64,000 bases of DNA, taken from the NCBI GenBank assembly GCA_001769805.1, contig MEPO01000019.1, positions 37,093 to 101,092 of the forward strand, written 5' to 3'. The notes beneath the pieces are model-generated. The model saw only the letters and a list, made by a program, of their open reading frames with translations, searched no databases and had not been told where the DNA came from. Made by a program: the position numbers and the translations under genes. The stretch's first letter is position 1. The number at the start of each line of letters is the position of its first letter. Origin of the DNA: Bdellovibrionales bacterium GWA1_52_35. GTDB lineage: Bacteria > Bdellovibrionota > UBA1018. Positions 5,990 to 58,374 of this stretch are shown piece by piece.

Positions 5990-6433
5990 TTATTTCCAGG
6001 TGCTGCAAGACGGCGCAATGCTGACAAAATCATCTCTGTACCTATTACAGAGTTCAAAAACCTCAGTGCGCGCCTCATGAAGATGCGCGAAAATCCGGCT
6101 GCGGAAAGGCATTTCTTCGATTGGCCCTGTAATAATGCGTCTTTCCGTTCCATTCCAAGCAGGGCAAAGAACTGCCGCGCGCCGAATGATCGAGTATTTA
6201 GCGGTGCTTTGGTAGTTTCCGAGTGATCCTGAGTCGTAGACGAGCGTACAGGAGGTCGCCTTGACCAAACACCAGTCTTCGATCTCACAACCCCTTGGGA
6301 TGAAAAATTCTGGTGCCCCGATTGATCCCAGTTCGGGAGAATCGTAATCGGCAGAGGCTGGCATCGATGAAAGAGTGGCCGCAAAAGCCACTAATCCTAA
6401 TAATATTAATGATTTAAGACGTAAAATTTTCAT
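5990..6433 (-). CDS. Small secreted cysteine-containing hypothetical protein
   Basis: Signal peptide MKILRLKSLILLGLVAFAATLSSMPASA. Six Cys in the mature part. No family recognised. Confidence 0.5.
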   Translation of the reverse strand: MKILRLKSLILLGLVAFAATLSSMPASADYDSPELGSIGAPEFFIPRGCEIEDWCLVKATSCTLVYDSGSLGNYQSTAKYSIIRRAAVLCPAWNGTERRIITGPIEEMPFRSRIFAHLHEARTEVFELCNRYRDDFVSIAPSCSTWK

Positions 6434-6524
6434 CGGGGCTCCCTGTTTTTATGCTCAGCGTAAAGGACATCAGAAATGACAGATTGCGTCATAACTTAAA
6501 CAGCGTACCAATTCAAGAATTAAC

Positions 6525-6545
6525 AGGAAAATTGCTAGGAAAATT
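6525..6545 (+). promoter_or_regulatory. Tandem 9-bp direct repeat AGGAAAATT-gct-AGGAAAATT upstream of the BMP/ABC operon
   Basis: Exact repeat at 6525-6533 and 6537-6545, 12 bp centre to centre, about 45 bp upstream of the ATG at 6589. Confidence 0.35.
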
Positions 6546-6588
6546 CTGCGCATTGCGGCGGGCTCGGGTTTTAGGGTAAAAATTTAAG

Positions 6589-7590
6589 ATGAACTTCAAT
6601 AAAAACGTTGGTCTCCTTCTGGGTGGACTGCTCTGGTCTGCAGTTCAGCTTTCGGCTCCTTTGGCCCATGCGGAATTCAAAGTGGCCCTCGTGCTGGATA
6701 AGGGTGGCAGGGACGACAAATCCTTCAATTCCGCCGCTTATAATGGTGCGACCCAGGCCAAAGACGAATTCAAGCTTCTGCTGAAATACGTAGAGGCCGG
6801 TGATGACAATGCGTACGAGGCATTGCTTCGTTCCTTTGCGCAGAAAAATTTTGATCTGATCATCAGTATCGGTGTTGCCCAGGCAGAGGCGGTGAAGAAG
6901 GCGGCGGAAAAATTTCCTCAAAAACATTTCGCGATTGTAGATGCGACTGTTGATTTACCCAATGTGCGATCTCTGCTTTTTGAGGAACACGAGGGCTCTT
7001 ACCTGGTCGGAGCGGCAGCGGCACTGGTCTCCAAATCCAATATCATCGGATATATTGGCGGCATGGATATCCCACTGATCAGAAGGTTTGAAATGGGTTA
7101 CGCGGCGGGTGCTAAAAAAATCAATCCCAAGATCAAGGTGATCTCGAACTTCATAGGTGTGACCAGTGATTCCTGGAATAATCCTGCAAAAGCCAAGGAA
7201 CTTGCGCTGACTCAGTTCAATGGCGGCGCCGATGTGGTTTTTGCGGCAGCCGGGGCCTCGAATGCGGGCCTGATGGATGCTGCGGAAGAGACCAGGAAGT
7301 ATGCCATCGGGGTGGATTCAAACCAGAACTGGATCAAGCCCGGGCGTGTTCTGACCAGTATGCTCAAGCGTGTGGATACTGCGGTGTATGCTGCCTGCAA
7401 AGACGCGTTTAATAATAAATTCACGGGTGGGGTGGTCCGCTTTGGCCTGCAGAACAAGGGTGTGGATTATGCCGTCGATCAGCACAACGAAAAGCTTTTG
7501 ACCCCCGAAATCAGGAAAAAACTGGATCAACTAAAAATTGAAATCATCAGCCGGAAAATAAAGGTTCCTGATTATTACACAAAGAAATGA
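6589..7590 (+). CDS. BMP-family (Med/PnrA-like) ABC transporter substrate-binding protein
   Basis: Signal peptide. 'VALVLDKGGRDDKSFNSAAYNG' and 'GYIGGMDIPLIRRFEMGYAAGAK' are typical of basic membrane protein / purine-nucleoside receptor family binding proteins. Confidence 0.85.
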   Translation: MNFNKNVGLLLGGLLWSAVQLSAPLAHAEFKVALVLDKGGRDDKSFNSAAYNGATQAKDEFKLLLKYVEAGDDNAYEALLRSFAQKNFDLIISIGVAQAEAVKKAAEKFPQKHFAIVDATVDLPNVRSLLFEEHEGSYLVGAAAALVSKSNIIGYIGGMDIPLIRRFEMGYAAGAKKINPKIKVISNFIGVTSDSWNNPAKAKELALTQFNGGADVVFAAAGASNAGLMDAAEETRKYAIGVDSNQNWIKPGRVLTSMLKRVDTAVYAACKDAFNNKFTGGVVRFGLQNKGVDYAVDQHNEKLLTPEIRKKLDQLKIEIISRKIKVPDYYTKK

Positions 7591-7600
7591 TCACCTGGAA

Positions 7601-9217
7601 ATGACCTCCGCAGACAAAGCGGTACCAGCAGTCGAGCTGCGCGGCTTAAGCAAGGCGTTCAACGGCTTTGCAGCCAACACGGACGTGAATCTGCTGGTTC
7701 GTCCCGGAACCATTCACGCCATCATCGGAGAGAATGGCGCGGGCAAATCCACAGCGATGAAACTTCTCTACGGAATTCACAAACCCGACAAGGGCGAAAT
7801 CCGGATCCGGGGTGAAACAAAAGTATGGAAGACCCCTGCGGAGGCAATCGCCTGCGGCATCGGAATGGTCCATCAGCATTTCATGCTGGCTGGGCCCTAC
7901 TCGGCGCTGGAAAATATTCTGCTTGGAGTCGAATCATCAGCTTCAGCGGAGGGGAGGGCGTCGTTCATTCCCAAATTTCTGAGACCCGTGGGCCGTAGCC
8001 GTGCGATTAGGCAGCTTGATGAGATTTCCTCTCAGTACGGGCTGAAGGGAATTCCCTGGGATACGGAGGTCGAAGCTCTGCCCGTTGGGGTACAGCAGCG
8101 GATCGAAATTCTCAAGCTCCTTTATCAAAATGCCTCGATCCTGATTCTGGATGAACCCACCGCCGTGCTGACGCCACAAGAAACCGTTGAGCTGTTCATG
8201 AATCTGAAAAAACTGGCAGCCGAGGGGAAGTCCATTCTCATCATCACCCACAAACTCAAAGAGGTGATGAACCTCAGCGATGATGTCACGGTTTTGCGTG
8301 GTGGTCGGGTAGTGGGGTGTCGTCGCACTCCGGAGACGAATATCGAGGAACTGGCTGGGTTGATGGTGGGTCGAAAAGTGAATCTGCAGGTGGCTGCACC
8401 ACCTGCTCCGGTTCTGGGTCCGGCGGTGCTTGCGCTGAAGAATGTTTCCTTGAAAACCCGCTCCGTCCACGAAACCGGCATGCACCGTCTCAATGATCTG
8501 TCGTTTGAGGTTCGAAGCGGTGAGGTCGTGGGCATCGCCGGCGTGGAAGGCAACGGGCAATCGGAACTGCTGCATGTGCTGCTGCATCCGCTTGAGTTCT
8601 GCAAGAGTCGCGATGGCGGCCTCTCCGGGGAAATCAACTGCCTGGGTTCCGTAACACACGACGCACGGCGATCGCTTTCGACAAAAAGGATCAGAGATCT
8701 CGGGGTAGGGATTATTCCGGAAGATCGTCACAAGGAAGGTCTTTTGCTTGAACGTTCCGTGGAGGACAATTTTCTACTGGGCCAGGAAACCAGGAAACCG
8801 TTTTCGGTCAGCGGATTCATTTCGGGTGGAGCCCTTCGTGCTGCGGCGAACGTCGCGATCGAAAAATATGATGTGCGGCCAAGAAATCTCACCATTGAAG
8901 CTGGAAATCTTTCAGGCGGAAACCAGCAAAAATTGATCATCGCCCGTGAATTTGAGCAGTCGCCCAGATTTATCATCGCAGCACAGCCGACCCGAGGCGT
9001 GGATGTGGGGGCAATTGAGTTCATTCACCAGAAAATCCTGTTGGCACGCACCGCCGGCGCAGGAGTCTTGCTGATTTCATCGGAACTGGATGAAATTCTG
9101 GCCTTATCAGACAGAATCCTCGTCATGTATGGCGGCAAAATCGTTGCTCGCTTTCAGCGGGGAGAGGCGACCGAACAGGCGCTTGGACTCTATATGGGGG
9201 GCGCAGGTTCCAAATGA
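7601..9217 (+). CDS. ABC transporter ATP-binding protein with duplicated NBDs (nucleoside/sugar importer type)
   Basis: Walker A 'GENGAGKST', second NBD 'GVEGNGQSELL', signature 'LSGGNQQKLIIAREF'. Confidence 0.9.
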   Translation: MTSADKAVPAVELRGLSKAFNGFAANTDVNLLVRPGTIHAIIGENGAGKSTAMKLLYGIHKPDKGEIRIRGETKVWKTPAEAIACGIGMVHQHFMLAGPYSALENILLGVESSASAEGRASFIPKFLRPVGRSRAIRQLDEISSQYGLKGIPWDTEVEALPVGVQQRIEILKLLYQNASILILDEPTAVLTPQETVELFMNLKKLAAEGKSILIITHKLKEVMNLSDDVTVLRGGRVVGCRRTPETNIEELAGLMVGRKVNLQVAAPPAPVLGPAVLALKNVSLKTRSVHETGMHRLNDLSFEVRSGEVVGIAGVEGNGQSELLHVLLHPLEFCKSRDGGLSGEINCLGSVTHDARRSLSTKRIRDLGVGIIPEDRHKEGLLLERSVEDNFLLGQETRKPFSVSGFISGGALRAAANVAIEKYDVRPRNLTIEAGNLSGGNQQKLIIAREFEQSPRFIIAAQPTRGVDVGAIEFIHQKILLARTAGAGVLLISSELDEILALSDRILVMYGGKIVARFQRGEATEQALGLYMGGAGSK

Positions 9218-10257
9218 AATTCCTGGAACGGATTCAACCCCTCATTGCCGTAATCGTCGGGCTGGCACTCGGGCTTCTGATTACTCAGTTTGCCGGCGAG
9301 AGCCCGTGGCATGTTCTCAAGGTCCTGGCTGGCAGCGCCTTTGGCTCCCGTTATGACATCGGCATGACCTTGTTTTATGCAACTCCTTTGATTTTCACCG
9401 GATTGGCGGTTGCGATTCCTTTCCACGCCGGATTGTTCAATATCGGGGCCGAAGGGCAACTGACCTTGGGCGCCCTGGCTGCAGCTGCGGTTGGGATATG
9501 GTTTCCCAATGCGCCCTGGCCGCTGGCACCGCTTTTTGCAGGACTCGCGGCATTCTCTGCGGGCGCACTCTGGGCGGCAATTCCGGGATGGCTGAGGGCA
9601 CGCAGAGGCAGTCACGAGGTGATCACCACGATCATGCTCAATTTCGTTGCGGCCGGAGTGGCCAGTTATGCCACGCTTTATCTTTTGAAGAATCCTGATT
9701 CACAAAATCCGGAAACGATGGCTGTCGGGGCAGGATATCTGTTAGAACACATTAAATTTTTCGGCGATGCTCCCGTGAATTCCGCGCTCTTCCTTGCGCT
9801 CATCGCCGCGGCTCTCGTTGGGGTGTTTCTATGGAGAACAGTCGGCGGCTTTCAGCTTCGAGCTGTCGGGCAGGGGGAGCAGGCTGCGAAAACAGCCGGA
9901 ATAGATCCTGGAAAGATGAGAATTCTTGCGATGTGTCTAGCAGGCGGGATGGCGGGCCTGGTTGGAGTGGCCGAGGTTTTGGGCAATGCCACGCGATTCA
10001 AACTTGGTTTCTCCCCGGATTATGGTTTCATCGGAATTGCGGTTGCTTTGCTCGGACGGAACAAACCCCTCGGCGTCATAGCCGCAGCGGTTTTGTTTGG
10101 CGCGCTTCACAAAGGGACGATTGACCTGGATCTGGAAACGGAGAACGTCACAAGAGATCTTTCTTTGATTTTGCAGGCCCTGATCATAGTGACCGTCTCT
10201 GCTGACGGGCTCTGGAGCTGGATGCGCAAGGCAAAGACAAATGGAGGCACCCTTTAA
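9214..10257 (+). CDS. ABC transporter permease
   Basis: Polytopic membrane protein. ATGA overlap with the upstream ATPase gene (9214-9217). Position in the BMP-type importer operon. Confidence 0.85.
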   Translation: MKFLERIQPLIAVIVGLALGLLITQFAGESPWHVLKVLAGSAFGSRYDIGMTLFYATPLIFTGLAVAIPFHAGLFNIGAEGQLTLGALAAAAVGIWFPNAPWPLAPLFAGLAAFSAGALWAAIPGWLRARRGSHEVITTIMLNFVAAGVASYATLYLLKNPDSQNPETMAVGAGYLLEHIKFFGDAPVNSALFLALIAAALVGVFLWRTVGGFQLRAVGQGEQAAKTAGIDPGKMRILAMCLAGGMAGLVGVAEVLGNATRFKLGFSPDYGFIGIAVALLGRNKPLGVIAAAVLFGALHKGTIDLDLETENVTRDLSLILQALIIVTVSADGLWSWMRKAKTNGGTL

Positions 10258-44440: not shown

Positions 44441-45967
44441 ATGAATATCAGAATCCTCGCAATGGCTTTTGTCGCCCTGTCCTTTCCGCTCTTCTCTGCG
44501 GCAACTGATTCCAGAACGGTTGACTTGAAACAGATCCAGGGCGCGTTAAATAGATCAAAAGCAAATTGGAGTGCGAAAGCAACCTGGCTTTCAGAATTGC
44601 CCGCGAGTGAACTTGAAAAAGTGATGGGGCTTCAGCATGCTCCTGAAGGCGATCTGGATTTTGAAGCAGTTCCCGGGTTCAGAAATAATGAGCTGCCCGT
44701 TTCGATTGATTGGCGGAACAAGGATGGGGTGAACTGGATCGGGCCTATCATGAACCAGGGCAATTGTGGAAGCTGCGTCGCGTTCGCGGCAGTTGCCACG
44801 CTGGAAGCCCAGGCCTCGATTAGTGCAGGCCTCCCCTGGTTGCGCTCAAGTTTTTCACCCCAAGCCCTTTTTTCCTGCGGTGGCGGCGGCTGTGGTATCG
44901 GATGGCTCTCCGGAGAAGCAGCGGCTTTCCTTTCTTCCAGGGGTGTTCCGGACGAAGCGTGCATGCCTTACACCTCCGGGTCGACTTCCGAGGATGTTGC
45001 CTGCAGTAATCTTTGCGCAGATGCAAGCGCACGCACTTATAAAATAGCAAGCTACACGATGCCGAGTCATTTCGGCACAGGCCGTGAGGTTGTGAAGGAA
45101 GCGCTCAAAAATGGTCCTCTCGTGACCTCAATGAGAGTGTACGCCGACTTCGTTACTTATGCGGGCGGAATATACAAACACGTCTCTGGGCCCTCGCTCG
45201 GTGGACATGCAATCAGCCTTATCGGTTACGATGAAAACAAGCGTGCCTGGCTCATCCGCAACAGCTGGGGCATGGAGTGGGGCGAGGCAGGTTTCGGTTG
45301 GATCAGCTGGGACGATCGTTCGGGCGTTGGTGTGGATACCTACAAGTACAACCCGATGCCGGAGAAGACCCATATTTCAGTCAATGCTCCGCTGGATCGT
45401 GAATACATCTCTGGAGAGTATTTACTTTTGGCACGTGCACAGGGGCTGGCAACGGATCTGCTCCAGTTTCGGATCAAAAGCCCACAAGGGAAGGATTTTG
45501 GAGCATATTCCTGCACCCTTCAAAAAGACACCTGTTCGACTCAGCTGGATACGCGACAGCTGCCGGAAGGAAGGTATGAGGTTTTTGCTGAAACCGCCAC
45601 GTCAGGCATAAAATCGCAGCCCCGGAGTTTTTACGTGATCAACAGTAAGCCTCGTTTGAGTCTCAGCTTTCAGGCCGCATCTGGAGTTGATCTGAGCAAA
45701 CCGCTGAAAGGTCGGCCTGAGTTCTTGATTCAGGCGGTTTCATCACCCGTTCCAATTCAACACCTGGAATTCGTGGTGCTTGATCTGAACGAAAAACCGG
45801 TCGTTATTAAAACCAATGAATACGTCCTGGAATCCATTAAGATGGGTTGGCGTACATTGGGTGTTCCGAACGGCGCGTATAAAATATATTTCCGTGGTGA
45901 AACCAATTATAACGGGAAAACTTATTCCGTTGAGACACCCCGCGCGTCGGTAACGGTTCAGAACTAA
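44441..45967 (+). CDS. C1 (papain-like) cysteine peptidase with two C-terminal beta-sandwich-like repeats
   Basis: Signal peptide. Cys 'QGNCGSCVAFAAVA', His 'GGHAISLIGYD', 'NSWGMEWGEAGF'. C-terminal repeats end '...LPEGRYEVFAE...' and '...VPNGAYKIYFRGE...'. Confidence 0.85.
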   Translation: MNIRILAMAFVALSFPLFSAATDSRTVDLKQIQGALNRSKANWSAKATWLSELPASELEKVMGLQHAPEGDLDFEAVPGFRNNELPVSIDWRNKDGVNWIGPIMNQGNCGSCVAFAAVATLEAQASISAGLPWLRSSFSPQALFSCGGGGCGIGWLSGEAAAFLSSRGVPDEACMPYTSGSTSEDVACSNLCADASARTYKIASYTMPSHFGTGREVVKEALKNGPLVTSMRVYADFVTYAGGIYKHVSGPSLGGHAISLIGYDENKRAWLIRNSWGMEWGEAGFGWISWDDRSGVGVDTYKYNPMPEKTHISVNAPLDREYISGEYLLLARAQGLATDLLQFRIKSPQGKDFGAYSCTLQKDTCSTQLDTRQLPEGRYEVFAETATSGIKSQPRSFYVINSKPRLSLSFQAASGVDLSKPLKGRPEFLIQAVSSPVPIQHLEFVVLDLNEKPVVIKTNEYVLESIKMGWRTLGVPNGAYKIYFRGETNYNGKTYSVETPRASVTVQN

Positions 45968-46007: not shown

Positions 46008-47033
46008 GTGCCGGAAGATAAACCCAGGGTTTCTATACATCGCGCTTTAATTATCGTATTTCTCAGTACGCTGATTCTGGCCATTGAGTTTGCGCTCTAT
46101 TCTGTTCGGTGGATTGCGCTAGCCGCCGTCATTGGAATTGCGCTGAGTGTGATACTTTACCCAGCCATGCGGTTTATGAAACAGAAACTCAAAATTCCGC
46201 AGGGCGTAAGCGCTTTCTTGTTTTTCGTCGGATCCCTGGGTTTGATCGTCGGGTCTGCTATTATCTTGTACTCCGTCGTGGCTGAGCAGTTATTTCCACT
46301 TGTTGATAAACTGCCGGATTTAATACAGCAAGCTAGGCAAAGAATGAGTGAGCTCCTTGCATACGCGCCCGGTTTGTCCAGACAAATGGGATCAATCGAT
46401 CTCGGCGAGTTGCTCGGCGCAGCTCCCGCAGAGCTTGCTCATGGCTTTCGTCTCGGCGCTTCGGCCATTGGGGGGCTTGTATTTGTCGTGATTCTGGCCG
46501 TTTATCTGGCGATCGACGCACAAAGCTATATGAGCGGTCTGCTTTCGCTATGGCCAAAGCAGGCCCGACCCAAGGTCAGTAAAGCCTTAGGGGAATCGGC
46601 GTACACGATCCGGCAATGGTTTGTCTCTCAACTGATTGCAATGACGGCAGTGGGTGTATTGACAGGTTTGGGCTTGTGGTTAGCAGGTTTCGATTATTGG
46701 CTTTTATTTGGGGTTTTAACGGGAGCTTTGGATATCATCCCGTACCTGGGACCACTCGCATCGGCAAGCGCCGCAATCCTTATAGCGATAGCCTCAGATC
46801 CTGACAAAATTATTTGGATTATTTTTGTATACGTTGTGATGCAGCAGATTGAGGGCCATCTGATCATTCCGCTGGTGATGAAAGAGCGCATTGATTTGCC
46901 GCCCGCCCATTTAATGACGCTCATGCTTGTGCTGGGCTCGTGGTTTGGAATAATTGGTCTACTGATCGCCCCCGGATTATTGGCGGTGAGTCGAACCATT
47001 TATCAAAAATTTTACGCAAGGAACGATTTTTGA
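46008..47033 (+). CDS. AI-2E family (PerM/UPF0118) transporter
   Basis: Polytopic protein. 'GALDIIPYLGPL' motif. GTG start. Confidence 0.8.
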   Translation: MPEDKPRVSIHRALIIVFLSTLILAIEFALYSVRWIALAAVIGIALSVILYPAMRFMKQKLKIPQGVSAFLFFVGSLGLIVGSAIILYSVVAEQLFPLVDKLPDLIQQARQRMSELLAYAPGLSRQMGSIDLGELLGAAPAELAHGFRLGASAIGGLVFVVILAVYLAIDAQSYMSGLLSLWPKQARPKVSKALGESAYTIRQWFVSQLIAMTAVGVLTGLGLWLAGFDYWLLFGVLTGALDIIPYLGPLASASAAILIAIASDPDKIIWIIFVYVVMQQIEGHLIIPLVMKERIDLPPAHLMTLMLVLGSWFGIIGLLIAPGLLAVSRTIYQKFYARNDF

Positions 47034-47081: not shown

Positions 47082-47984
47082 ATGCGATGCGCCGACCTCC
47101 GTCTTCTTATTACTATTTGTCTGTATTGGGGTGTTTGCACTTCGGCATATTCAGCTGAGGCTTCGCTGAATCCAGGGCCCGTGGATTTTGCAGTAAATAA
47201 GCTCAAAAAAGCGGAAGTGTCGGAAGGCTTTATATTGCAGCTCCAGCAGCTCCACATTCCCGAGGATCGCGACCGGATTATAGAGCTGAACGTCCTGGGC
47301 GGTCTGGCCACAGCAGATTACTCAGGACATTACAGCAAACGGGCACTCAAGCGTTGTGCAGATTTCATTAAAAAATATCGCAAGGATCTGAAAAAAGCCG
47401 AGAAGACCTTCGGAATTTCAAAGGAAGTGATCGCAGCTCTGCTTTGGGTTGAAACGAAGCACGGAAAGATCACCGGAAGATACAATGTCGCCAATGTATT
47501 CTTCAGTCTTCTGCAGGCAGATCACCCGGAGGTGATCAAGTCCAGCCTTGTCGCAGGAGCGGCCAAATTTCCTGGTCGAGGAGAGGAGTACCGGCAGAAA
47601 ATCATCGAGCGTTCCCTGACGAAGGCAAACTGGGCCAAGAATGAGCTTCTGTCTCTTGATGTGGTATTTCGCGGCAAGCCCGGCCGTCTGATGATGCTGT
47701 CGGGCTCCCACTCGGGTGCATTTGGGATACCGCAGTTTATTCCTTCCAGTTATGTTCAATGGGCCCGGACCCCGTCGAAGACACGGAAGCCGGACCTTTT
47801 CAAAATCAACGACGTGATCCAGAGTGTGGCCTTTTATCTGAAGGCAAATGGCTGGATTCATGGAGATGAAGCAGCACAGAGAACTGCGCTTTTTCATTAT
47901 AATCGAGCTCAGGGTTATGTGGATGTCATATTGAAGATAGCAGCTGCTCTGCAGTCTCAGGGAAAGGCCGGTAAATCCCGCTGA
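47082..47984 (+). CDS. MltB-family lytic murein transglycosylase
   Basis: Signal peptide. Catalytic Glu context 'LLWVETKHGKITG'. 'GAFGIPQFIPSSY'. Confidence 0.75.
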   Translation: MRCADLRLLITICLYWGVCTSAYSAEASLNPGPVDFAVNKLKKAEVSEGFILQLQQLHIPEDRDRIIELNVLGGLATADYSGHYSKRALKRCADFIKKYRKDLKKAEKTFGISKEVIAALLWVETKHGKITGRYNVANVFFSLLQADHPEVIKSSLVAGAAKFPGRGEEYRQKIIERSLTKANWAKNELLSLDVVFRGKPGRLMMLSGSHSGAFGIPQFIPSSYVQWARTPSKTRKPDLFKINDVIQSVAFYLKANGWIHGDEAAQRTALFHYNRAQGYVDVILKIAAALQSQGKAGKSR

Positions 47985-48775
47985 CTGAGTCCCGCTTGGA
48001 TCATTTGCCAGGCAAACGCTGGCGCAACAGCCTCCAGCTTGTTCAATCCCAGTTCCTGGAGAATTTCTCTCGTAATCGCCGGGTGGAATCCAGAAAGTAA
48101 TACGAAGCCGCGACCCGCACGAAGCTGGGTGATTGCGGGCTTGCCGTCCGGGTACCGGGCGATCACACCACCCGGAATGGCAGGCGTGACAGGACCGCCG
48201 AACCAGAGAAGTTCCCTTGATCTACCATCTGGAAATTGCGCAAGGCTTAACGCGTATTCCCGGCCTTGTCGCTGTAAGTAACTTTGCTCCTGGATCGGGC
48301 CTGTGACAATGCCAAACCCGTAACTTTGGTCATCCACCACTGGATCGGGAGTGATCGCGGCCCAGGCTCCCGCGCAGAATCCAAGATAGCTCAGTCCGTG
48401 CTCTCGCACGGCAATGCGAAGTCTGTTTCGCGTTGAACCACGTAAGTTCCTTGTGAGCGTCCAGGCATCTCCACCAGGAAAAATCAGCAGCCGAAACTTT
48501 GTGATTTGCTCAAGCGAGAATGAGTCGAGTTCCTGACCGGAGACTTGCTGGTAGGTGGCTCCGTGTTCATAGAGAATGCTCGACAGGGTTTCCACTTCCA
48601 ATCCCCAGCTGCCCGGCCCGGAATAGATCAGCGCGTCGGTACGCTCCCGGCCCGGATTGGATGCCGGAGCGGGTGGAGTGCCGCCGGGTGAATCTCCTTT
48701 TGGATAAGAACAACCCGCAATGGCAAAAAAAATGACAATCGCGAAAGCCCGAAAAACCCCGCCCCCTGCTTGCAT
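47957..48775 (-). CDS. Lipoprotein with a class-I glutamine-amidotransferase-like (BPL_N/DJ-1-like) fold and a candidate nucleophilic Cys
   Basis: The ATG at 48775 overlaps the upstream stop (TAATG). Lipobox 'IAGC'. 'LLIFPGGDA' and a nucleophile-elbow-like 'LGFCAGAW'. Confidence 0.5.
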   Translation of the reverse strand: MQAGGGVFRAFAIVIFFAIAGCSYPKGDSPGGTPPAPASNPGRERTDALIYSGPGSWGLEVETLSSILYEHGATYQQVSGQELDSFSLEQITKFRLLIFPGGDAWTLTRNLRGSTRNRLRIAVREHGLSYLGFCAGAWAAITPDPVVDDQSYGFGIVTGPIQEQSYLQRQGREYALSLAQFPDGRSRELLWFGGPVTPAIPGGVIARYPDGKPAITQLRAGRGFVLLSGFHPAITREILQELGLNKLEAVAPAFAWQMIQAGLSQRDLPAFP

Positions 48776-49587
48776 TATATTTTGGTGGTCAACGAGAGAG
48801 AGGACCATAATTCATTTCCGGCATTCAAATCTGATCGATAGGACCACTGCCTGTCCAGGCTTAAGCTGATGGTGAACCTGGAAATATATATGCTGGTTCC
48901 TATCTGGAGCGTGGAATGAGTCAGTCCGGGTCGAATATTGAATACACCATCGTGGTAATTCAGTGATCCGCTGATTCCAAGGTACTGAGCCAATGTGCCG
49001 GGTAGAAGAGTCGGAACTTCATGCGCATAACGAAGATGCGCCTGGTGAAGTGCTCCACCCTGGTATTGATCTTTTCTATTCCGTTCCCAGTAAATCGAGT
49101 AGTAGACATTATAGGCGGGAATGACGTGAGAGCCGGCAATCGGCAAGAGCGCCGGCAAGGACAGGCCAAGATGCAATTTATTTCCCTGTTTTATTTCGAG
49201 TGGTTTTTCGATGCCAAACTCGTCCACCTGTAATTCCGGTTTAGGATAAATCCAATAATCGGCAAAGCCTTGAACCTGAATCGCCAGCGGCGAGCCCCTG
49301 AAAATGATCCGGCTGTATCTCGCCATTACATCCAGCTCATCATTAAAATGATTTGCCCGATCCAGCTGCAGAGCGGACCAGAACATAAGAGAGAAACCGG
49401 GGGTAAGGATGTCGATACTGAGTGAAGGCTGCACTACCGGGTGGTCTCCCCCGACTTTAAATCCATCCATCATGTATTTTGAGGAAAAGGTCAGATCTGT
49501 CGTTACACCAAGGTGGCCAGCTTCACTGCTGAGAACATTGGAAGCTGTAAACAAAAACCCGAATATGACTAATAAACGTATTTTCAT
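48775..49587 (-). CDS. Outer-membrane beta-barrel, TorF / Gcw_chp-like putative porin
   Basis: Signal peptide. 'TTDLTFSSKYMMDGFKVGGDHPVVQPSLSID' resembles the TorF-family N-terminal motif. ATGA overlap with the upstream gene. Confidence 0.5.
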   Translation of the reverse strand: MKIRLLVIFGFLFTASNVLSSEAGHLGVTTDLTFSSKYMMDGFKVGGDHPVVQPSLSIDILTPGFSLMFWSALQLDRANHFNDELDVMARYSRIIFRGSPLAIQVQGFADYWIYPKPELQVDEFGIEKPLEIKQGNKLHLGLSLPALLPIAGSHVIPAYNVYYSIYWERNRKDQYQGGALHQAHLRYAHEVPTLLPGTLAQYLGISGSLNYHDGVFNIRPGLTHSTLQIGTSIYISRFTISLSLDRQWSYRSDLNAGNELWSSLSLTTKI

Positions 49588-50585
49588 GCTGCATTCTCTG
49601 ATTCGTGCACATCATGAACAGCAGGTTTCAGTTGGGCGCGAGCCGGAACGAGCAAGCGCTGGTCGGGAGCCCAGCTGAGGCTGATACGCGGAACGCGACT
49701 TAGAATAGCAAGCCACAGGGTGAGAACGTAGGGAAGACTCAATGCGGGAAGCCCGATACGTTTCAAAAATTGATCAGCAGCGATGGTGATGAAACACGAA
49801 AAGGTGCAGAAGATGAAAATCGTCCGCCAAGAATATTTTTGGGGAAAGGACGCCAGACCCAGTCCGACCAGCCCGGCACTATAACTGAAATATCCGTACT
49901 CCCAGACTCCTGCACCGGTCGAGAGCAGGTAGGAACCGAGCAGGGCACAGCCCGTACCCGCAATAAAGTAAATCGCCCTTCGCGGGCTGAAAACGAAGAG
50001 AAGGGCCGTAGCCGCCAAACCGAAGGAGGCATTGGGAATAAAAAGCAGGCGCCCAGCACTCAGGAACAGGGCATCTGCAAGTCTTAACGGTAAACCCCAC
50101 GCGGTGTGCAGGCCAGGAAGGGCGGCAATCTCAGGAGGCCATGCCTGAGGATTCAGGGTGAGTGAAAAACCGGGTGCGCTCAGCCAGAATATCCAGACTA
50201 CGGCGATGTAGGGGAAGATGAAGGGACTCAGCTTCCAGTGCTGCAGAACCTCGTGACTGGCTTTTACAAAATACGGCAACGCCAGTGAGCCGAGCAGTAC
50301 GCATAGGTATAAGGTAACCGAGCTTTCAAAAAAATGGGCCATAGCCAGACCAAAGAAAAATCCGTTAAGGGATATTAAACCATAGTGTTTGAGCACCTTT
50401 GGAGTGCTGTAATTTCTGGAAAACGCATATCCCAGGAGGGATGAGTAAAGCGCAATCAAAAATGCGCGAAAGTCAAAAGCCGAAACGAGCAAAAGCAGGC
50501 CTGCTCCGAACAGGGGATGATCAAGAAAAAATGCGTTTGCAATCCCTGACAAATATTCCTGAATACCAGCGCTTATCTTTTTCAT
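49584..50585 (-). CDS. Urea-transporter (UT) family membrane channel-like protein
   Basis: 'LSGIANAFFLDHPLFGAGLLLLVS...GLISLNGFFFGLAMAHFF' follows the UT pattern (GIGQvfF...GLyGfNgvLvGlal). The ATG at 50585 forms ATGA with the upstream stop. Confidence 0.6.
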   Translation of the reverse strand: MKKISAGIQEYLSGIANAFFLDHPLFGAGLLLLVSAFDFRAFLIALYSSLLGYAFSRNYSTPKVLKHYGLISLNGFFFGLAMAHFFESSVTLYLCVLLGSLALPYFVKASHEVLQHWKLSPFIFPYIAVVWIFWLSAPGFSLTLNPQAWPPEIAALPGLHTAWGLPLRLADALFLSAGRLLFIPNASFGLAATALLFVFSPRRAIYFIAGTGCALLGSYLLSTGAGVWEYGYFSYSAGLVGLGLASFPQKYSWRTIFIFCTFSCFITIAADQFLKRIGLPALSLPYVLTLWLAILSRVPRISLSWAPDQRLLVPARAQLKPAVHDVHESENAA

Positions 50586-51229
50586 AATTCCACCCATTCT
50601 CCGCAAGCAACAGTCCGGCTTCCCCAGCGCAGCAGTCGCGGACATTCGGAGCGGACCGCGAGCACAGCTCCAAATCCGAAACGAGGCTGCGATAAATACC
50701 AGTTTCCCCAAGTGGAGTCGTAAAATTTCGCCGTCCCATCGGGCAGCTCAAGGACGCAAAGCTCGTGATAGACAAGTCGATCACCGATCCAGGGAAAAAC
50801 AGTGTCATCTTTGCCCTTTTTCCAAAGCGCTTTCCAATGATTGGTACAGGTTTCGTTGTAGCTGAGCAGGGCCTGTGCGGGATGGACCTCGTGCCCCTGG
50901 GCTTTGAAAACCTCTCGGGCCAGCGCCGCAAACACGCCGCAGTCCAGGACCTTCTTGTTTACCAGTTCGCACCAGGCAATAGGCCAGGACGACGGACCCC
51001 ACGAGTAGAGCTGCTGAAGCCAGATTGGGGCCTTGATTTCAAATTGCGAAATATTCCCGATCTCCATGGATCTCGCGTAAGCGAGAAACCAGAGACGGGC
51101 GCGCTCACAGCATTCGGCATCATGATGGACCAGCGATGAGGATGGGTGCTCTGTCCATTCCTGAAAATGCTTTTCACGGGCGACAAGCTCAGCGATGGGA
51201 TCCTGCAGGTTAGCCGCGACCAAACCCAT
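50582..51229 (-). CDS. Transglutaminase-core-like (papain-fold Cys-His-Asp) cytoplasmic protein
   Basis: Candidate triad: Cys in 'VLDCGVFAALAREVFKAQGH', His in 'LVYHELCVLE', Asp in 'KFYDSTWG'. No signal peptide. Confidence 0.5.
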   Translation of the reverse strand: MGLVAANLQDPIAELVAREKHFQEWTEHPSSSLVHHDAECCERARLWFLAYARSMEIGNISQFEIKAPIWLQQLYSWGPSSWPIAWCELVNKKVLDCGVFAALAREVFKAQGHEVHPAQALLSYNETCTNHWKALWKKGKDDTVFPWIGDRLVYHELCVLELPDGTAKFYDSTWGNWYLSQPRFGFGAVLAVRSECPRLLRWGSRTVACGEWVEL

Positions 51230-53480
51230 AGCTCATGCTCCTTTCGTATCCACCGGCATCACCAAAGATCACATAATCCCCGATTTGTGCCGATTCTGGC
51301 AGGGAAACGCCATCACTGAGAATGTCGTCTTCCATGCAAATTCGTCCCAGAATGCGGGTTTCTCCCTTGCTGAGTCGAACCGGCGGGGAATTGGCTTCCA
51401 AAGAGCCGATTTGTTTGAAAAACAGCCGATGCGAGTACGCCTGAGCCAGGGGCAGTTCGGCGATGCAGGCATCGACCACGATTTCATGAAGGCTGGCATC
51501 CGGTGTTTTTCTCAGATCGAGAATTCTGGAAACCAGTATTTCACCGTCCTGGGTAAGTGAGCGGCCCGGTTCAAGGTACAGCGTGCCGACATTCGGAAGG
51601 GCCTTCCGCACGCTTTCCTGAATTCCGCTGATATCCAGCCGTTCCAAATCCGCCGGAAAGAAGCCACCCCCGAGATCCAGATGCTTTACGGGTCTTCCGC
51701 TGAGCCTTTCGGCAATCTGGCACCAAATCAGAAGCGAATCGAGCGCCTGCATCCAGGTCTGAAGTCCGATCGCCCAGCTTGGCATGTGAAAGTGAAATCC
51801 CAGCTCCGCCCTGCCCTGAAGCTTCTTCATCTTGTGGATCAAGTCGGAAAATCTGCGGGGGTCATCGAGCGGATTTCCAAAACGTGAGTGTACTTTCGGC
51901 ACTCGCATTCTAAATCCAATCACCTTTGCGATCCCCGGCAGCGCTATGACACGATCGAATTCTTCCGGTGAATCACAGTACAGTGCGTGGAGTCCCGTTA
52001 CCGGTTTGTCAGTCAGGGGCCAGAATTTCCCTGGCCCATTCAAAATGATCTGGGAAGGCAAAAAGCCAAAGGACAGAGCGCGTTGAACCTCCATTTGGCT
52101 GATGCATTCCGCAAAAAAGCCGGATTCCTTTGCCTTCCTGAGGTAATCATCCGTAGGGCAGGTTTTGACACTGAACCCGATCTGAATACGGCTGGTGTTT
52201 AAAGACGCTTGTTTAACCCGTTTCGCCAGGCGATCGAAACGGCCGCGCGCCCACTGCTCCAGATGAATCCGAGCAGGCGTGGGTCCGACATACTGCTCTG
52301 TTAGACTTGAAATTTCAGTGAAATACGAAGGATCGATGTGTTCCGGGACATCACCGGATTTGTCCGGTGTTTTCGAGTGCTGTTCCTGGGCGGAGGCGAG
52401 GGTCGGAATCAGTGCTGAAAAATCCGGACCTGATTTGCCTTTTTTGCCTTCACTCGCCCAAGCCATGGTTGCGGGATCTGGCGGCAAGGGAATGCCCACG
52501 GATTCTTTTGCTGGGATATCCTGAACAACACGCGTGAAGAACGGGTAGGGATTGACCGTTTCGAGAAATGGCATATTCCAGACATGCGCGATGAGCTTGG
52601 CAACGACGTTCTGGCCGGCGAGAGCCCCTCCATAAACCCAGGCTGGAAATCGAGGATTGCATTCTATCAACCACTTGTGGCCATCGGGATCGCGCGCGAA
52701 CTCGACTTCGCCGCCGCCCGTGTAATTCAGTTTACGAATGGCTTCCTTAAAACCCTCGAGAAAGTCCGGCTCAACCGCAGTGACGCGTGCCGCCCAGGTT
52801 TTCCCTTCTGGCGTGATCTGTCTCTTCTGCATGTGAGCCGCGGCTATGAGTTCACCTTGATAGGCCGCGAAAGCGATCGTTTCTTCTGAGCCAATGATAT
52901 GTCTTTGCAGAAATAGCTTTGAGGTTCGCCAGCTCTTCGCCATGGCATCGCGAGCTTTCACAAAACCGATCCAGGAAGAAATTCGTTTGGCATCATGATA
53001 GGGACTCTTCAGCCAGCATTGCCAGGCGTGCTGTCGCAGGAAATAGTGGATATCGGAATCCGGCAGAGATGCGGAAATGAAATCGGGAACACGAAAGCCC
53101 AAGCCGTCCAGCCCCGAGACAGCCGGTTTCGCAGTTAGCTCCAGGGCCTTCGCACCGGGGGCAAGTAGATTGGAATGAGCGCCAAGGTGCTCGGCGAGCC
53201 AGTGAACCTCCATATCCATGGCCGCAATCCAAAGATGATCATCATTTAGAATGGATAGAATGTGGTCACCGTGTTGAGCATCATTGATCTGCTTCCACTG
53301 GGGTAGCAGCAGGGTTTCATCGATTGACTTGTCGTGTAATCCTGAGCTTCCCTGCCAGTGGTCAACACCGACAAGCGTCAAATTTGGAAACGCGGCCCTG
53401 AGGCATCGTGCTATCCCCACGCCTGAACAGGGATTCTGACCTGAGTGCATTCCGCTGATGAATATTTTTGGTGGCGCCAT
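51210..53480 (-). CDS. Fusion protein: N-terminal ATP-grasp ligase plus C-terminal fold-type-III PLP-dependent decarboxylase (Orn/DAP/Arg decarboxylase family)
   Basis: ATP-grasp 'GGGEVEFARDPDGHKWLIECNPRFPAWVYG'. Decarboxylase motifs: 'IGFSVKTCP' (PLP Lys), 'GFHFHMPS', 'HLDLGGGF', 'LYLEPGRSL', 'GRICMEDD', 'GDAGGYERSMS'. ATG at 53480; the track TTG start is at 53522. Confidence 0.75.
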   Translation of the reverse strand: MAPPKIFISGMHSGQNPCSGVGIARCLRAAFPNLTLVGVDHWQGSSGLHDKSIDETLLLPQWKQINDAQHGDHILSILNDDHLWIAAMDMEVHWLAEHLGAHSNLLAPGAKALELTAKPAVSGLDGLGFRVPDFISASLPDSDIHYFLRQHAWQCWLKSPYHDAKRISSWIGFVKARDAMAKSWRTSKLFLQRHIIGSEETIAFAAYQGELIAAAHMQKRQITPEGKTWAARVTAVEPDFLEGFKEAIRKLNYTGGGEVEFARDPDGHKWLIECNPRFPAWVYGGALAGQNVVAKLIAHVWNMPFLETVNPYPFFTRVVQDIPAKESVGIPLPPDPATMAWASEGKKGKSGPDFSALIPTLASAQEQHSKTPDKSGDVPEHIDPSYFTEISSLTEQYVGPTPARIHLEQWARGRFDRLAKRVKQASLNTSRIQIGFSVKTCPTDDYLRKAKESGFFAECISQMEVQRALSFGFLPSQIILNGPGKFWPLTDKPVTGLHALYCDSPEEFDRVIALPGIAKVIGFRMRVPKVHSRFGNPLDDPRRFSDLIHKMKKLQGRAELGFHFHMPSWAIGLQTWMQALDSLLIWCQIAERLSGRPVKHLDLGGGFFPADLERLDISGIQESVRKALPNVGTLYLEPGRSLTQDGEILVSRILDLRKTPDASLHEIVVDACIAELPLAQAYSHRLFFKQIGSLEANSPPVRLSKGETRILGRICMEDDILSDGVSLPESAQIGDYVIFGDAGGYERSMSYGFGRG

Positions 53481-53488
53481 AAATTTAC

Positions 53489-53508
53489 CTGCCGCGCATT
53501 TGCGGCAG
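53489..53508 (-). promoter_or_regulatory. Perfect 7-bp inverted repeat / leader hairpin immediately upstream of the fusion-gene ATG
   Basis: CTGCCGC (53489-53495), gcattt, GCGGCAG (53502-53508). On the mRNA strand the 3' arm contains GCAGG, the only SD-like element, 9 nt from the ATG at 53480. Confidence 0.35.
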
Positions 53509-53595
53509 CGCTGCGAATGCAATTCTGGTGCTACCCGCTTCTGATAATTTGGGATTATGATATTTTGATAAAAGTGCTAAATCCATTTGCGAACT

Positions 53596-54033
53596 ATGGC
53601 CTTGTTGAAGCGTAACCCAAGCCTGCAAAGTATTCCCGTTCCCCAGGAACATACAATGGGTTGTGCGGTGGCTTGCGTCGCTGCCAGATGTGGGCTGAAT
53701 TATCAGAAAGGATTAAGGTTGTTTTCACGGGCGCAAAACGCCTGGACACGTGGGTATTATTGCGGGGAAGTCGTGCAGGCATTGAGAAATGCGGGATTTC
53801 GGTATCGATATGATCCTTATGATCACGACGCGCACCATCGTTTTTTGAGCCGGGTAGGAACGATCATATTCATCGATCCCGATCGCTCCTACCCTGTCGG
53901 ACACTATTTGTTGCGTGTTCCAGAAGGTTGGATGAATTCCTGGGTCAACTGCCCGAGAATCCTGCCGGTTCAAGCGGCGGTTCAAAGAAAAAGGATTGGC
54001 AAAACTTCCTTCATTATTTACGAGGCTGAATGA
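53596..54033 (+). CDS. Stand-alone C39-like (papain-fold) cysteine peptidase domain protein
   Basis: 'VPQEHTMGCAVACVAARCGL' (Gln...Cys, as in the C39 Q-x5-C motif) and 'YPVGHYLLRV' (His). The track start at 53587 is TTG; the ATG is at 53596. Confidence 0.5.
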   Translation: MALLKRNPSLQSIPVPQEHTMGCAVACVAARCGLNYQKGLRLFSRAQNAWTRGYYCGEVVQALRNAGFRYRYDPYDHDAHHRFLSRVGTIIFIDPDRSYPVGHYLLRVPEGWMNSWVNCPRILPVQAAVQRKRIGKTSFIIYEAE

Positions 54034-54045
54034 AATGGCTGGTGC

Positions 54046-54567
54046 CTATTCGTTCGGACCAAGCTCACTGAGTAATTTAAGGAGCCCGAGAAGATGGCCC
54101 TTCTCTTCGTTCGCAAGCTCAACCATGTATTTCTTATGTGAAGCTTTGACGTGGTTTTTCAGGCCGGAATAAAACGCGACAGCCGCTTCTTCAATGCTGA
54201 TTGCATAACGAACCAACTGGATGGGAGTCAGATTTGATAGAGATGCCGGGTCCAGCACAAGGCCGAGCTTTTTGAACACTTCTGTTTCGAAATCCAGGCT
54301 TATTTTCATCACAAATTCATCGGTAGTGGCTCCCCTGATCAGCCAGTTGAAAATATCGTCTTCGCTGTTGGTCCGCACATTCTTCTCGAACTCCCGGAAA
54401 AAGTCGCCATGTTTCCGTTCCTGCTCAGCCAGTTCCGAGCAAAGTTTTGCGACGGCCGGCTGTTTGGCATTTTTGCTGCCGAAATCATAAAGGCTCAGCG
54501 ATGCGGCTTCGATTTTTAAAGCAAGCGAGCAAACGGCGGTTGGATCGAGCTTCTTGAACGTTTTCAT
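54046..54567 (-). CDS. Ferritin-like / rubrerythrin-like di-iron four-helix-bundle protein
   Basis: Two ExxH motifs: 'ELAEQERKHGDFF' and 'ELANEEKGHLLGL'. Confidence 0.6.
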   Translation of the reverse strand: MKTFKKLDPTAVCSLALKIEAASLSLYDFGSKNAKQPAVAKLCSELAEQERKHGDFFREFEKNVRTNSEDDIFNWLIRGATTDEFVMKISLDFETEVFKKLGLVLDPASLSNLTPIQLVRYAISIEEAAVAFYSGLKNHVKASHKKYMVELANEEKGHLLGLLKLLSELGPNE

Positions 54568-57459: not shown

Positions 57460-58374
57460 ATGAGTTATTCTGTCAATAATCGGGGAAACTTCAACTTGAT
57501 AATCCAACTTAGAAATTTTAATGATGAGAGAGGGGGCATTGTGAGGCAGGAAACACATATTATTTCCGTGGGCGATCGCGTCACTGCTGGCCTTTACTCG
57601 CTCCACTCCCGCTTTGAACGTGTAGTTAATTTCAAAAGCAATACTTCAATCGTCTCATTTGTGACGGAAGAGGTGGGAGCAGGACCCAATAACATTGTAT
57701 ACCGGGGGGCAGCTTCTGGGTTGAAGAGGGCGCCCACAGCGGTTCTGACGGAAGACAAGTTCATTTTGATCGGTGGCGATTGTTTCTCAACTGCCGGAAT
57801 ACCGCGTTTCAATTCCACGCTGGAGTTAAACTCGGGTACTTGTGGCTCAGCAGGGGACTTGGCAATACTGGAATCGTTTCTGGTCGCCCATGCGCAGGAA
57901 AAGAGCCTCTGTTTCCTTTTGGATCCAAGGCGGGAAGTCCAATTCAGATCCGGGTTTGAGCTTGGCGTCGTTCGGGCGTTCAAAAATGCCAAGCTTCAGA
58001 TCGGCTCTGGTGAGCTGTGTTCTGCAATCAGAGGTGTCCAGGGGCTGGGATGGGGTCTGACCCCCAGTGGTGATGATTTCGTCACGGGACTTTTGATCGG
58101 AGCGCGGATCTATCATTTGCCGGTTCTTTCTGAGATCATCGGAGCCATTGACTTTGAGAGGCTCGCTCCACTGTCGGCTTTGTTTTTAAGGAATGCCGCC
58201 GAAGGACGTGTCTGCGGCCGCTGGAAGAACCTGCTGCAGGAATTGGCGGGTGGAAACAGCTGCAAAATCATGCGGGCTGCCGAGCGAGTATTGCAGGTGG
58301 GAGCAAGTTCGGGGGCAGATACCCTGGTAGGATTCATCATTGCCGCCCGTTTGTTACGGGGAAGAGAGGGTTAA
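57460..58374 (+). CDS. DUF2877 (YlbF-like) protein
   Basis: 'GLGWGLTPSGDDFVTGLLIG' and 'GASSGADTLVG' motifs. Position directly upstream of fdrA. Confidence 0.7.
   Translation: MSYSVNNRGNFNLIIQLRNFNDERGGIVRQETHIISVGDRVTAGLYSLHSRFERVVNFKSNTSIVSFVTEEVGAGPNNIVYRGAASGLKRAPTAVLTEDKFILIGGDCFSTAGIPRFNSTLELNSGTCGSAGDLAILESFLVAHAQEKSLCFLLDPRREVQFRSGFELGVVRAFKNAKLQIGSGELCSAIRGVQGLGWGLTPSGDDFVTGLLIGARIYHLPVLSEIIGAIDFERLAPLSALFLRNAAEGRVCGRWKNLLQELAGGNSCKIMRAAERVLQVGASSGADTLVGFIIAARLLRGREG

Follow-up and report, generated by a model that had tools for sequence, protein, structure and literature searches.

The operon and its proteins

We analysed a 64,000-nt stretch of DNA (the window) from Bdellovibrionales bacterium GWA1_52_35 (contig MEPO01000019.1, positions 37,093 to 101,092 of the forward strand), in which five consecutive minus-strand genes, here called A to E (47957–53480), are joined by overlapping stop and start codons. 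The junctions were read from the open reading frame (ORF) list and the reverse-complement sequence. The stop codon of A (TAA, 51212–51210) lies downstream of the start codon of B (ATG, 51229–51227), giving an overlap of 20 nt; B and C have a common ATGA at 50585–50582, C and D a common ATGA at 49587–49584, and D and E a common TAATG at 48777–48773. A first-pass annotation, made from the letters alone, had placed the four couplings at these same positions and had drawn the operon from 47957 to 53522. Its five genes stand, but alignment with homologues indicates that A most likely starts at ATG 53480 (756 aa) and not at TTG 53522, and a sixth conserved gene, up148, lies outside that span. Gene up148 (148 aa, plus strand, 53587–54033) diverges from A, and its start codon is ambiguous (TTG 53587 or ATG 53596). 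The 106 nt that separate the two genes (53481–53586), read directly from the sequence, are presumed to bear promoters. Base composition across the operon region was unremarkable, and scans for promoters and terminators performed no better than on shuffled sequence.

The product of gene A (51210–53480, minus strand) consists of an ATP-grasp domain (residues ~1–330), a variable linker and a fold-type III pyridoxal phosphate (PLP) decarboxylase domain (residues ~400–756). The decarboxylase half was detected by the Pfam models Orn_Arg_deC_N (E 4.7e-17, 62.6 bits against a cut-off of 23.4) and Orn_DAP_Arg_deC (E 1e-6, 29.4 bits against 23). Named ATP-grasp families scored below threshold (ATPgrasp_Ter, PF15632, E 0.009, 16.2 bits against 29.1; PRK12767, 27.6 bits against 218). 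An AlphaFold2 model of residues 1–347, built on an alignment of 40 homologues, had a predicted local distance difference test (pLDDT) score of 92.6, and a Foldseek search of the PDB with this model gave 708 matches with E < 1e-3, the top ones all being ATP-grasp enzymes. The best were 2pn1, which resembles carbamoyl-phosphate synthetase (CPS), biotin carboxylases, RizA, PylC and PurK, at E 1e-13 to 1e-11. As modelled, the N-terminal domain certainly has the three-subdomain ATP-grasp fold.

Among 10 sequences from several phyla, residues K158, K219, E199-E200, E258, E260, E273, N275 and R277 of the ATP-grasp domain were invariant or nearly so and its E-x-N-P-R motif was invariant; by analogy, these residues would bind nucleotide and Mg. 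Invariant residues in the decarboxylase half were the PLP lysine K439, H563/H565, the GGG motif G604-606, the EPG motif E637-G639, C715 and CMExD. Because the catalytic residues are invariant across phyla, both halves of protein A look active. Source databases label the protein 'ATP-grasp domain-containing protein', 'diaminopimelate decarboxylase' or 'hypothetical protein'. On one metagenomic contig (L088, 3208–5337, plus strand) gene calling divided A into two genes, of 326 and 285 aa, separated by a gap; either the halves are truly split there or the contig is misassembled.

The closest solved structure to the decarboxylase half is FslC (7kh2; E 3.7e-35 by profile and 2e-14 by single sequence), followed by diaminopimelate (DAP) decarboxylases (best E 4e-28), DokD and BtrK (E 3.5e-22). 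Pairwise alignment showed that A and FslC have the motifs CM[EQ]xD and DAxIxx[LI]P....YxH in common; at these two positions DAP decarboxylases presumably carry CESGD and an IRP arginine that binds the distal carboxylate. The best NCBIfam match of A was to the LysA equivalog TIGR01048 (81.4 bits, below the cut-off of 297.9), and the score against the FslC equivalog NF041039 was 54 bits, below a cut-off of 500.

Gene B (50582–51229, minus strand) encodes a protein of 215 aa that lacks a signal peptide and is predicted to be cytoplasmic. No sequence match was obtained in Pfam (Transglut_core included), NCBIfam or the PDB, and source databases label it only 'hypothetical protein'. Its family comprises ~270 clusters at 50% identity among 1.8 billion representatives, nearly all of 190–250 aa, and B thus defines a protein family without a Pfam, NCBIfam or solved relative. 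Cys97, His155 and Asp171 were invariant in 35 sequences. In the AlphaFold2 model (pLDDT 89.7), Cys97 opens a helix (residues 97–110), and His155 and Asp171 lie on the strands that follow (152–161 and 166–171), a placement that, as modelled, is the papain/transglutaminase arrangement. Foldseek matches were weak (E 4e-3 to 0.5, template modelling (TM) scores of 0.2–0.4); those with names were mostly transglutaminase- or papain-like, and included 3isr, TglA, arylamine N-acetyltransferases, LapG, factor XIII, NTAQ1 and CtaG.

Two fusion proteins of the B family look genuine. One (P0369, 376 aa) carries an acetyltransferase part of the Gcn5-related N-acetyltransferase (GNAT) type, and in the other (P0253, 584 aa) the B domain is followed by a Cys-rich C-terminal domain of ~390 aa with a CxxxxxxxCxxC motif, for which Pfam gave no match. 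An A+B fusion (P0356) and a B+C-type fusion (P0305) were first taken as support and then discarded; they are probably frameshift artefacts at the overlapping junctions, since the sequences are garbled at DAGGYERSMSYxFGRG (A) and DCGVF (B).

Gene C (49584–50585, minus strand, 333 aa) encodes an inner-membrane channel of a divergent subfamily of the urea transporter (UT) family. Pfam PF03253 was matched with E 5.7e-34 (118 bits against a cut-off of 25), and the protein aligned with both repeats of dvUT (3k3f, E 4e-9). The score against the urea-transporter equivalog TIGR03441 was 79.6 bits, below the cut-off of 274.6. The residues of C aligned to Q24 and E187 of dvUT, which we take to be the pore-ladder side chains, are N and R; many relatives have Q or E there. 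No urease genes were linked to C.

The last two genes of the operon encode proteins with export signals. The product of gene D (48775–49587, minus strand, 270 aa) has an N-terminal signal peptide, and a C-terminal Phe is found in 5/7 homologues; its beta periodicity barely exceeds that of control proteins. D is probably an outer-membrane beta-barrel, an assignment weakly supported by these features. Gene E (47957–48775, minus strand) starts at 48775 and encodes a lipoprotein of 272 aa, this start exposing a lipoprotein signal that ends IAGC. A fold of the class-I glutamine amidotransferase type is indicated by BPL_N (E 1.4e-10, 41 bits against a cut-off of 24.2) and by a match to PdxT (E 7.9e-5) in a profile search of the PDB. 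Among 10 homologues of E, BPL_N matched all 10, Peptidase_S51 nine and GATase four; the motifs YLGxCAGA and SGxHP were invariant and the lipobox Cys nearly so. E has a further paralogue, more divergent and with a canonical HPE motif, slightly downstream in several Bdellovibrionota loci (L001, 14848–15732; L007, 12743–13669; L011, 11455–12324; all plus strand).

These searches bear out the earlier identification of an ATP-grasp::PLP-decarboxylase fusion, a UT-family channel and a GATase1-like lipoprotein with a Cys nucleophile elbow. The description of B as a transglutaminase-like Cys-His-Asp protein is upheld by its invariant residues and by the weak fold matches, but not by Transglut_core or any other sequence model. 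Structural comparison had been suggested for both thiol-enzyme candidates: the one made for B gave the weak matches described above, and the fold of E is supported by the BPL_N and PdxT matches. The description of D as TorF-like is not supported. The NCBIfam TorF model (E 0.027, 14 bits against a cut-off of 47.15) and the Pfam model Gcw_chp (E 0.009, 16.5 bits against 24) matched the window copy only, both below threshold, and neither matched any of six homologues of D.

The divergent gene up148 is kept near A in Bdellovibrionota loci and in Pseudobacteriovorax; the loci that have it within ~2 kb upstream of A are L001, L007, L008, L009 and L011, of Bdellovibrionota, and L057. Unnamed divergent genes of 124–152 aa hold its position in further look-ups. 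The protein lacks a signal peptide, a PDB sequence search with it returned noise only, and a Pfam scan gave nothing usable. Its family shows the pattern Q-x5-C ... G-H ... N, in which Q20, C26, H106 and N117 are invariant, and Peptidase_C39 matches only 2/7 members, marginally (E 0.08). Pairs of ATP-grasp enzymes and transglutaminase-like peptidases were reportedly proposed by Iyer and colleagues in 2009 to be peptide-tagging systems, and the C39-like Q-x5-C motif of up148 would suit such a role. The locus might then modify peptides or proteins, either like pathways for peptides that are made on ribosomes and modified after translation (RiPPs) or by tagging; ligation would fall to the ATP-grasp domain, and leader cleavage or tag processing to the thiol enzymes. 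We give this very little credence: the overlapping genes leave no space for a precursor ORF, no conserved small ORF was seen in related loci, the PLP decarboxylase is of a type that acts on small molecules, and the C39 similarity is marginal. A carrier protein (PP-binding) was absent among the called neighbours in 10 look-ups, very small ORFs of the window not having been scanned with hidden Markov models. Both a RiPP precursor and a carrier protein were rejected as candidates within the locus, for lack of room between the genes and of any such gene among the neighbours.

None of the six proteins (A–E and up148) matched a PADLOC model, and a role in anti-phage defence was rejected on this ground. 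No Rfam match was obtained for the whole window at gathering thresholds, for 53300–54100 at E ≤ 1 or, in nine related loci, for the sequence upstream of A; a riboswitch or other RNA clue was accordingly discarded.

Conservation of the A–B pair and its partners

In a scan that took a single genome for each species, relatives of the A fusion were encoded in 243 stretches. The best 80 of these were retrieved and, together with six loci from contig look-ups, gave 82 non-redundant loci from at least 8 phyla. The groups represented were Bdellovibrionota, Myxococcota, Methylomirabilota, Sphingomonadales, Caulobacterales, Pyrinomonadaceae and Abditibacteriota (L005 and L006, from the look-ups), with single bins from Verrucomicrobiota, Anaerolineae, Burkholderiaceae and Bathyarchaeia. 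The last of these, a Candidatus Bathyarchaeia bin with a full A–B pair (L068, JAWAXL010000051.1), bears the sole archaeal label of the set, and therefore suggests bin contamination or horizontal transfer.

Gene B lay directly downstream of A in all 82 loci, and in 70 of them its ATG was positioned, in frame, exactly 20 nt inside A. The ATG of the overlap is built from the invariant Tyr codon of the A tail, SMSYxFGRG, and the G-initial codon that follows. Most of the remaining loci have a different overlap because A carries a short C-terminal extension there. This conserved arrangement exceeds chance, and we read the retention of the 20-nt overlap across phyla as selection for coupled translation, probably for formation of a complex. 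The B/C ATGA was present in 6/6 Bdellovibrionota loci of the overlap set. The Bdellovibrionota loci carry the five genes side by side, and in one of them (L012) they run in the order D-E-A-B-C, so that the linkage survives rearrangement. The five-gene set of the first-pass annotation thus recurs in other genomes, but it is not indivisible, A and B being the only genes found together in 82/82 loci. The module consists of a widespread two-gene core, A and B, to which C has been added in some lineages and D and E in Bdellovibrionota only.

Gene C directly followed B in 14/82 loci (16/86 before duplicates were removed) and in 5/5 look-ups made beyond these. The 14 loci belonged to Bdellovibrionota and to a clade in Myxococcota, Methylomirabilota and some Alphaproteobacteria. 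A reverse search with C yielded 32 relatives, 16 of them on contigs equal in length to the contig of an A or B hit, and in all four look-ups that followed this search A or B adjoined the UT gene. One such UT gene was only 27% identical to C, yet its upstream neighbour was 42% identical to B. Every C-like gene examined adjoins B, and the C subfamily therefore appears to be dedicated to the A–B module. Each component of the locus belongs to a known superfamily; what surprises is the dedication of a UT-family channel to an enzyme pair other than urease. Such strict coupling suggests that the UT family has roles or substrates beyond urea uptake.

The constant adjacency of B and C, with overlaps of 4–8 nt, may also be read in terms of urea or carboxamide chemistry. 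C would conduct urea or another small carboxamide of its kind, which B would attack much as transglutaminases do the amide of glutamine. B would thereby take up a carbamoyl or acyl group as a thioester, with release of NH3, and pass it to the amine that the decarboxylase domain generates; the result would be a ureido compound or an amide. Bicarbonate or another acid would be activated by the ATP-grasp domain. Primary carboxamides are the archetypal substrates of the B, E and C families, and CPS-like enzymes, biotin carboxylase and PurK are among the fold neighbours of the ATP-grasp domain. However, the window copy of C has N and R at the presumed pore-ladder positions and scores far below the urea-transporter cut-off, most A–B loci are without a UT gene, and we know of no precedent for this transfer chemistry. 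We regard the proposal as improbable.

Loci without C have other partners. An unnamed protein of ~220–240 aa is encoded just upstream of A in 56/82 loci (for example L083, 5300–6031, plus strand; L005, 6864–7589, minus strand; L022, 6117–6785, minus strand). Its motifs AHRDH ... NQxHG ... SIRVDG are invariant, and no Pfam or PDB sequence match was found; from this HxD...H...R pattern, the protein may be a 2-His-1-carboxylate oxygenase. A gene for a TauD-family dioxygenase occurs in 10/82 loci (Pyrinomonadaceae and related), and a GNAT gene in 8/82. One Pyrinomonadaceae locus (L028) has two opposed Acido-Lenti-1 RNA motifs just downstream of the B homologue (9988–10034, minus strand, and 10129–10176, plus strand). 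In the Bdellovibrionales locus L001, a lysyl-oxidase-family gene (6168–7916, plus strand) lies between the up148 homologue and A. Genes for lysyl oxidase, arginase and peptidase M14 near the L001 operon were considered as partners and rejected, as they did not recur in other loci.

Among the 82 loci, D and E were confined to Bdellovibrionota, a phylum known for predators, in which scavenging is plausible. This distribution lends some support to what we see as the main rival of a biosynthetic role, namely uptake and trapping: D would admit a compound, from which E would split off a small uncharged amide or amine; C would import this product, and A–B would trap or convert it by ATP-dependent ligation. 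UT channels that feed a cytoplasmic urease and γ-glutamylation in the Puu pathway for putrescine are parallels. Such a route would fit the uptake role of the bacterial UT channels known so far, the export signals of D and E together with their co-translation with C, and the hydrolase-type Cys-His site of E. In ~80% of loci, however, the A–B core occurs without any transport gene, and proteins that fuse a ligase to a decarboxylase typically serve synthesis. Other lineages pair the core with tailoring genes of oxygenase or GNAT type, and neither a regulator nor a binding protein travels with the module in the loci looked up. Uptake and trapping is thus a possible explanation that we consider rather unlikely.

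The flanking genes vary between loci. In the window, a gene for an SLT_2 lytic transglycosylase (47082–47984, plus strand) converges on the operon, its 3' end overlapping that of E by 28 nt. Beyond it lie genes for an AI-2E family transporter (46008–47033, plus strand) and for a secreted C1 protease of the papain family that has a long C-terminal extension (44441–45967, plus strand). The exception to the variation is L091, a close relative of the window, with the same SLT_2, AI-2E and peptidase C1 flank. The SLT_2 gene next to E in these two loci, the position of lysA as best NCBIfam match of A, and the presence of cell-wall peptidases among the papain-like and S51/GATase1-like folds could together point to the cell wall, with A acting on DAP-containing peptides of precursor synthesis or peptidoglycan recycling, and B, E and up148 serving as amidases or peptidases. 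This we hold to be quite improbable. The lysA score reaches only 81 of the required 298 bits, and the motif presumed to hold the distal-carboxylate arginine of DAP decarboxylases is replaced by the FslC-like one. B and up148 are without signal peptides, loci other than these two have no SLT_2 neighbour, and a UT pore is too narrow for muropeptides. A few kb on the other side of the operon, a gene matching Pfam AllH, a subunit of oxamate carbamoyltransferase (57460–58374, plus strand, E 3.4e-19), is followed by tightly packed plus-strand ORFs up to ~63660; these may form a nitrogen catabolic cluster of the allantoin/oxamate type.

A candidate pathway for small amides

The earlier proposal that the locus handles a small aminoacyl- or γ-glutamyl-amine that crosses both membranes is plausible, and the FslC-like decarboxylase adds some weight to it. 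Our own preferred reading, which we put forward tentatively and would not yet call probable, is that the locus encodes a small-amide pathway independent of non-ribosomal peptide synthetases (NRPSs), built around a cytoplasmic A–B core with three active sites and giving a product of the N-acyl-diamine type. NRPS-independent amide chemistry is suggested by the fusion of a ligase of ATP-grasp fold to a decarboxylase, and by the thioester chemistry of the superfamily to which B is tentatively assigned. In the proposed scheme, the ATP-grasp domain of A would activate a carboxylic acid as an acyl phosphate, and A would couple it to the amino group on the side chain of a diamino acid such as ornithine, lysine or a DAP-like compound. 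Loss of the alpha-carboxyl group, catalysed by the FslC-like domain, would then leave an N-acyl-diamine, although the reverse order is possible. Acylation of the distal amine and decarboxylation are suggested for A because FslC, its nearest solved relative, acts on a side-chain-acylated ornithine. B, which may work on the product of A since the two are translationally coupled, would form a thioester acyl-enzyme and either transfer the acyl group, making a second amide, or trim the product.

The lineage-specific genes can be placed around this core. Where C is present, a small uncharged product, or a small carboxamide that is a by-product or substrate of B, would cross the inner membrane passively through the channel. 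In Bdellovibrionota, D would carry the compound across the outer membrane, and E, as an outer-membrane-anchored amidase, would mature or recycle it together with the cytoplasmic, papain-like up148. The oxygenase- and GNAT-type neighbours found in other phyla fit a tailoring role.

Several observations weigh against a synthetic pathway of this kind. All of the chemistry assigned to A–E is inferred. The ATP-grasp domain of A is as close to the bicarbonate-activating CPS-like enzymes, biotin carboxylases and PurK as to RizA and PylC, and because these bicarbonate-activating enzymes and amino-acid ligases match equally well, the acid that A would activate is not fixed by the fold. The fold search with B gave no match below E 1e-3, and D is no more than a candidate barrel. 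Neither a carrier protein nor a second ligase was seen in the locus. Finally, every bacterial UT channel known to us serves urea uptake and not export.

A more radical reading, which we find doubtful, is that A and B form a self-contained, carrier-free machine for amide formation, in which the Cys of B would act as the thiol template, taking an acyl or carbamoyl group that A has either built or decarboxylated; C would carry a small amide other than urea, or else urea itself for use as a building block. If this were so, C would be the first member of the UT family to act in anything but urea uptake and would, in Bdellovibrionota, open an envelope-spanning route for a small-amide metabolite class not seen before.

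Returning to the proposed N-acyl-diamine pathway, the occurrence of the A–B pair in at least 243 species-representative soil and freshwater genomes from many phyla makes it likely that the product is a recurrent small metabolite. The ligase-decarboxylase fusion could serve as a compact biocatalyst for N-acyl-diamines. Cultured carriers of the pair (Sphingomonas qilianensis, S. xinjiangensis and Sphingomonas sp. PB2P19) make these proposals directly testable.

Comparison with known systems

The first-pass annotation knew of no described pathway with the full gene set, and this agrees with our failure to find a characterised locus. No named family or defence model covers the set, and the literature searched on ATP-grasp/decarboxylase systems, UT channels, transglutaminases and Bdellovibrio offered analogues only. 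None of the pathways compared matches the locus, and UT-fold channels, barrels and lipoprotein amidases are absent from all of them.

The UT urea channels themselves (dvUT, 3k3f, and Yut) belong to the same Pfam family as C and have the same two-repeat architecture. C differs in scoring below the Yut equivalog, in the varying residues at the presumed pore-ladder positions, in the absence of linked urease genes and in its coupling to B.

Closthioamide and E-64 are two examples of NRPS-independent amide assembly in which an ATP-grasp enzyme acts with a decarboxylase that supplies the amine. Closthioamide is made with the ATP-grasp enzyme CtaD and the papain-fold CtaG, which forms the amide bonds (PMC7183216, PMC12865890), and E-64 with an Fe/2-oxoglutarate-dependent oxygenase, an ATP-grasp enzyme, a PLP decarboxylase and an amide bond synthetase (PMC12568646). 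CtaG was among the fold matches of B, at a very weak level (E 0.24, TM 0.14). The ATP-grasp enzyme of the E-64 pathway is of the glutathione-synthetase type, whereas that of A resembles CPS, biotin carboxylase and RizA. In contrast to these pathways, the window locus has neither a ligase of the acyl-CoA synthetase/NRPS adenylation domain/luciferase (ANL) superfamily nor a carrier protein; they in turn are without its channel, barrel and lipoprotein.

The combination of A and B also recalls glutathionylspermidine synthetase/amidase, in which an ATP-dependent amide ligase and a papain-fold Cys amidase act on an acyl-polyamine. No sequence match to that family was obtained, however, and B is a separate protein of a different subfamily, a decarboxylase domain being fused to the ligase instead.

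The pathway to the 4-amino-2-hydroxybutyrate side chain of butirosin (BtrI, BtrJ, BtrK, BtrH and BtrG) has, like A, an ATP-grasp ligase and a fold-type III PLP decarboxylase, and is completed by a papain-like acyltransferase and removal of a protecting γ-glutamyl group. It depends on a carrier protein, BtrI, whereas no carrier gene was present in any locus examined here. Ligase and decarboxylase are separate there and fused in A, BtrH has no sequence similarity to B, and the aminoglycoside context has no equivalent at the A–B locus.

Rhizoferrin synthesis in Francisella, by FslA and the N-citrylornithine decarboxylase FslC (7kh2), differs in using an NRPS-independent siderophore (NIS) synthetase as ligase in place of the ATP-grasp domain of A. 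B, C, D and E have no counterpart there, and the window locus is without a siderophore receptor or exporter. A nevertheless has a decarboxylase of the FslC type, and the logic of rhizoferrin assembly, in which the side-chain amine is acylated and the product is then decarboxylated, suits a protein in which ligase and decarboxylase are fused.

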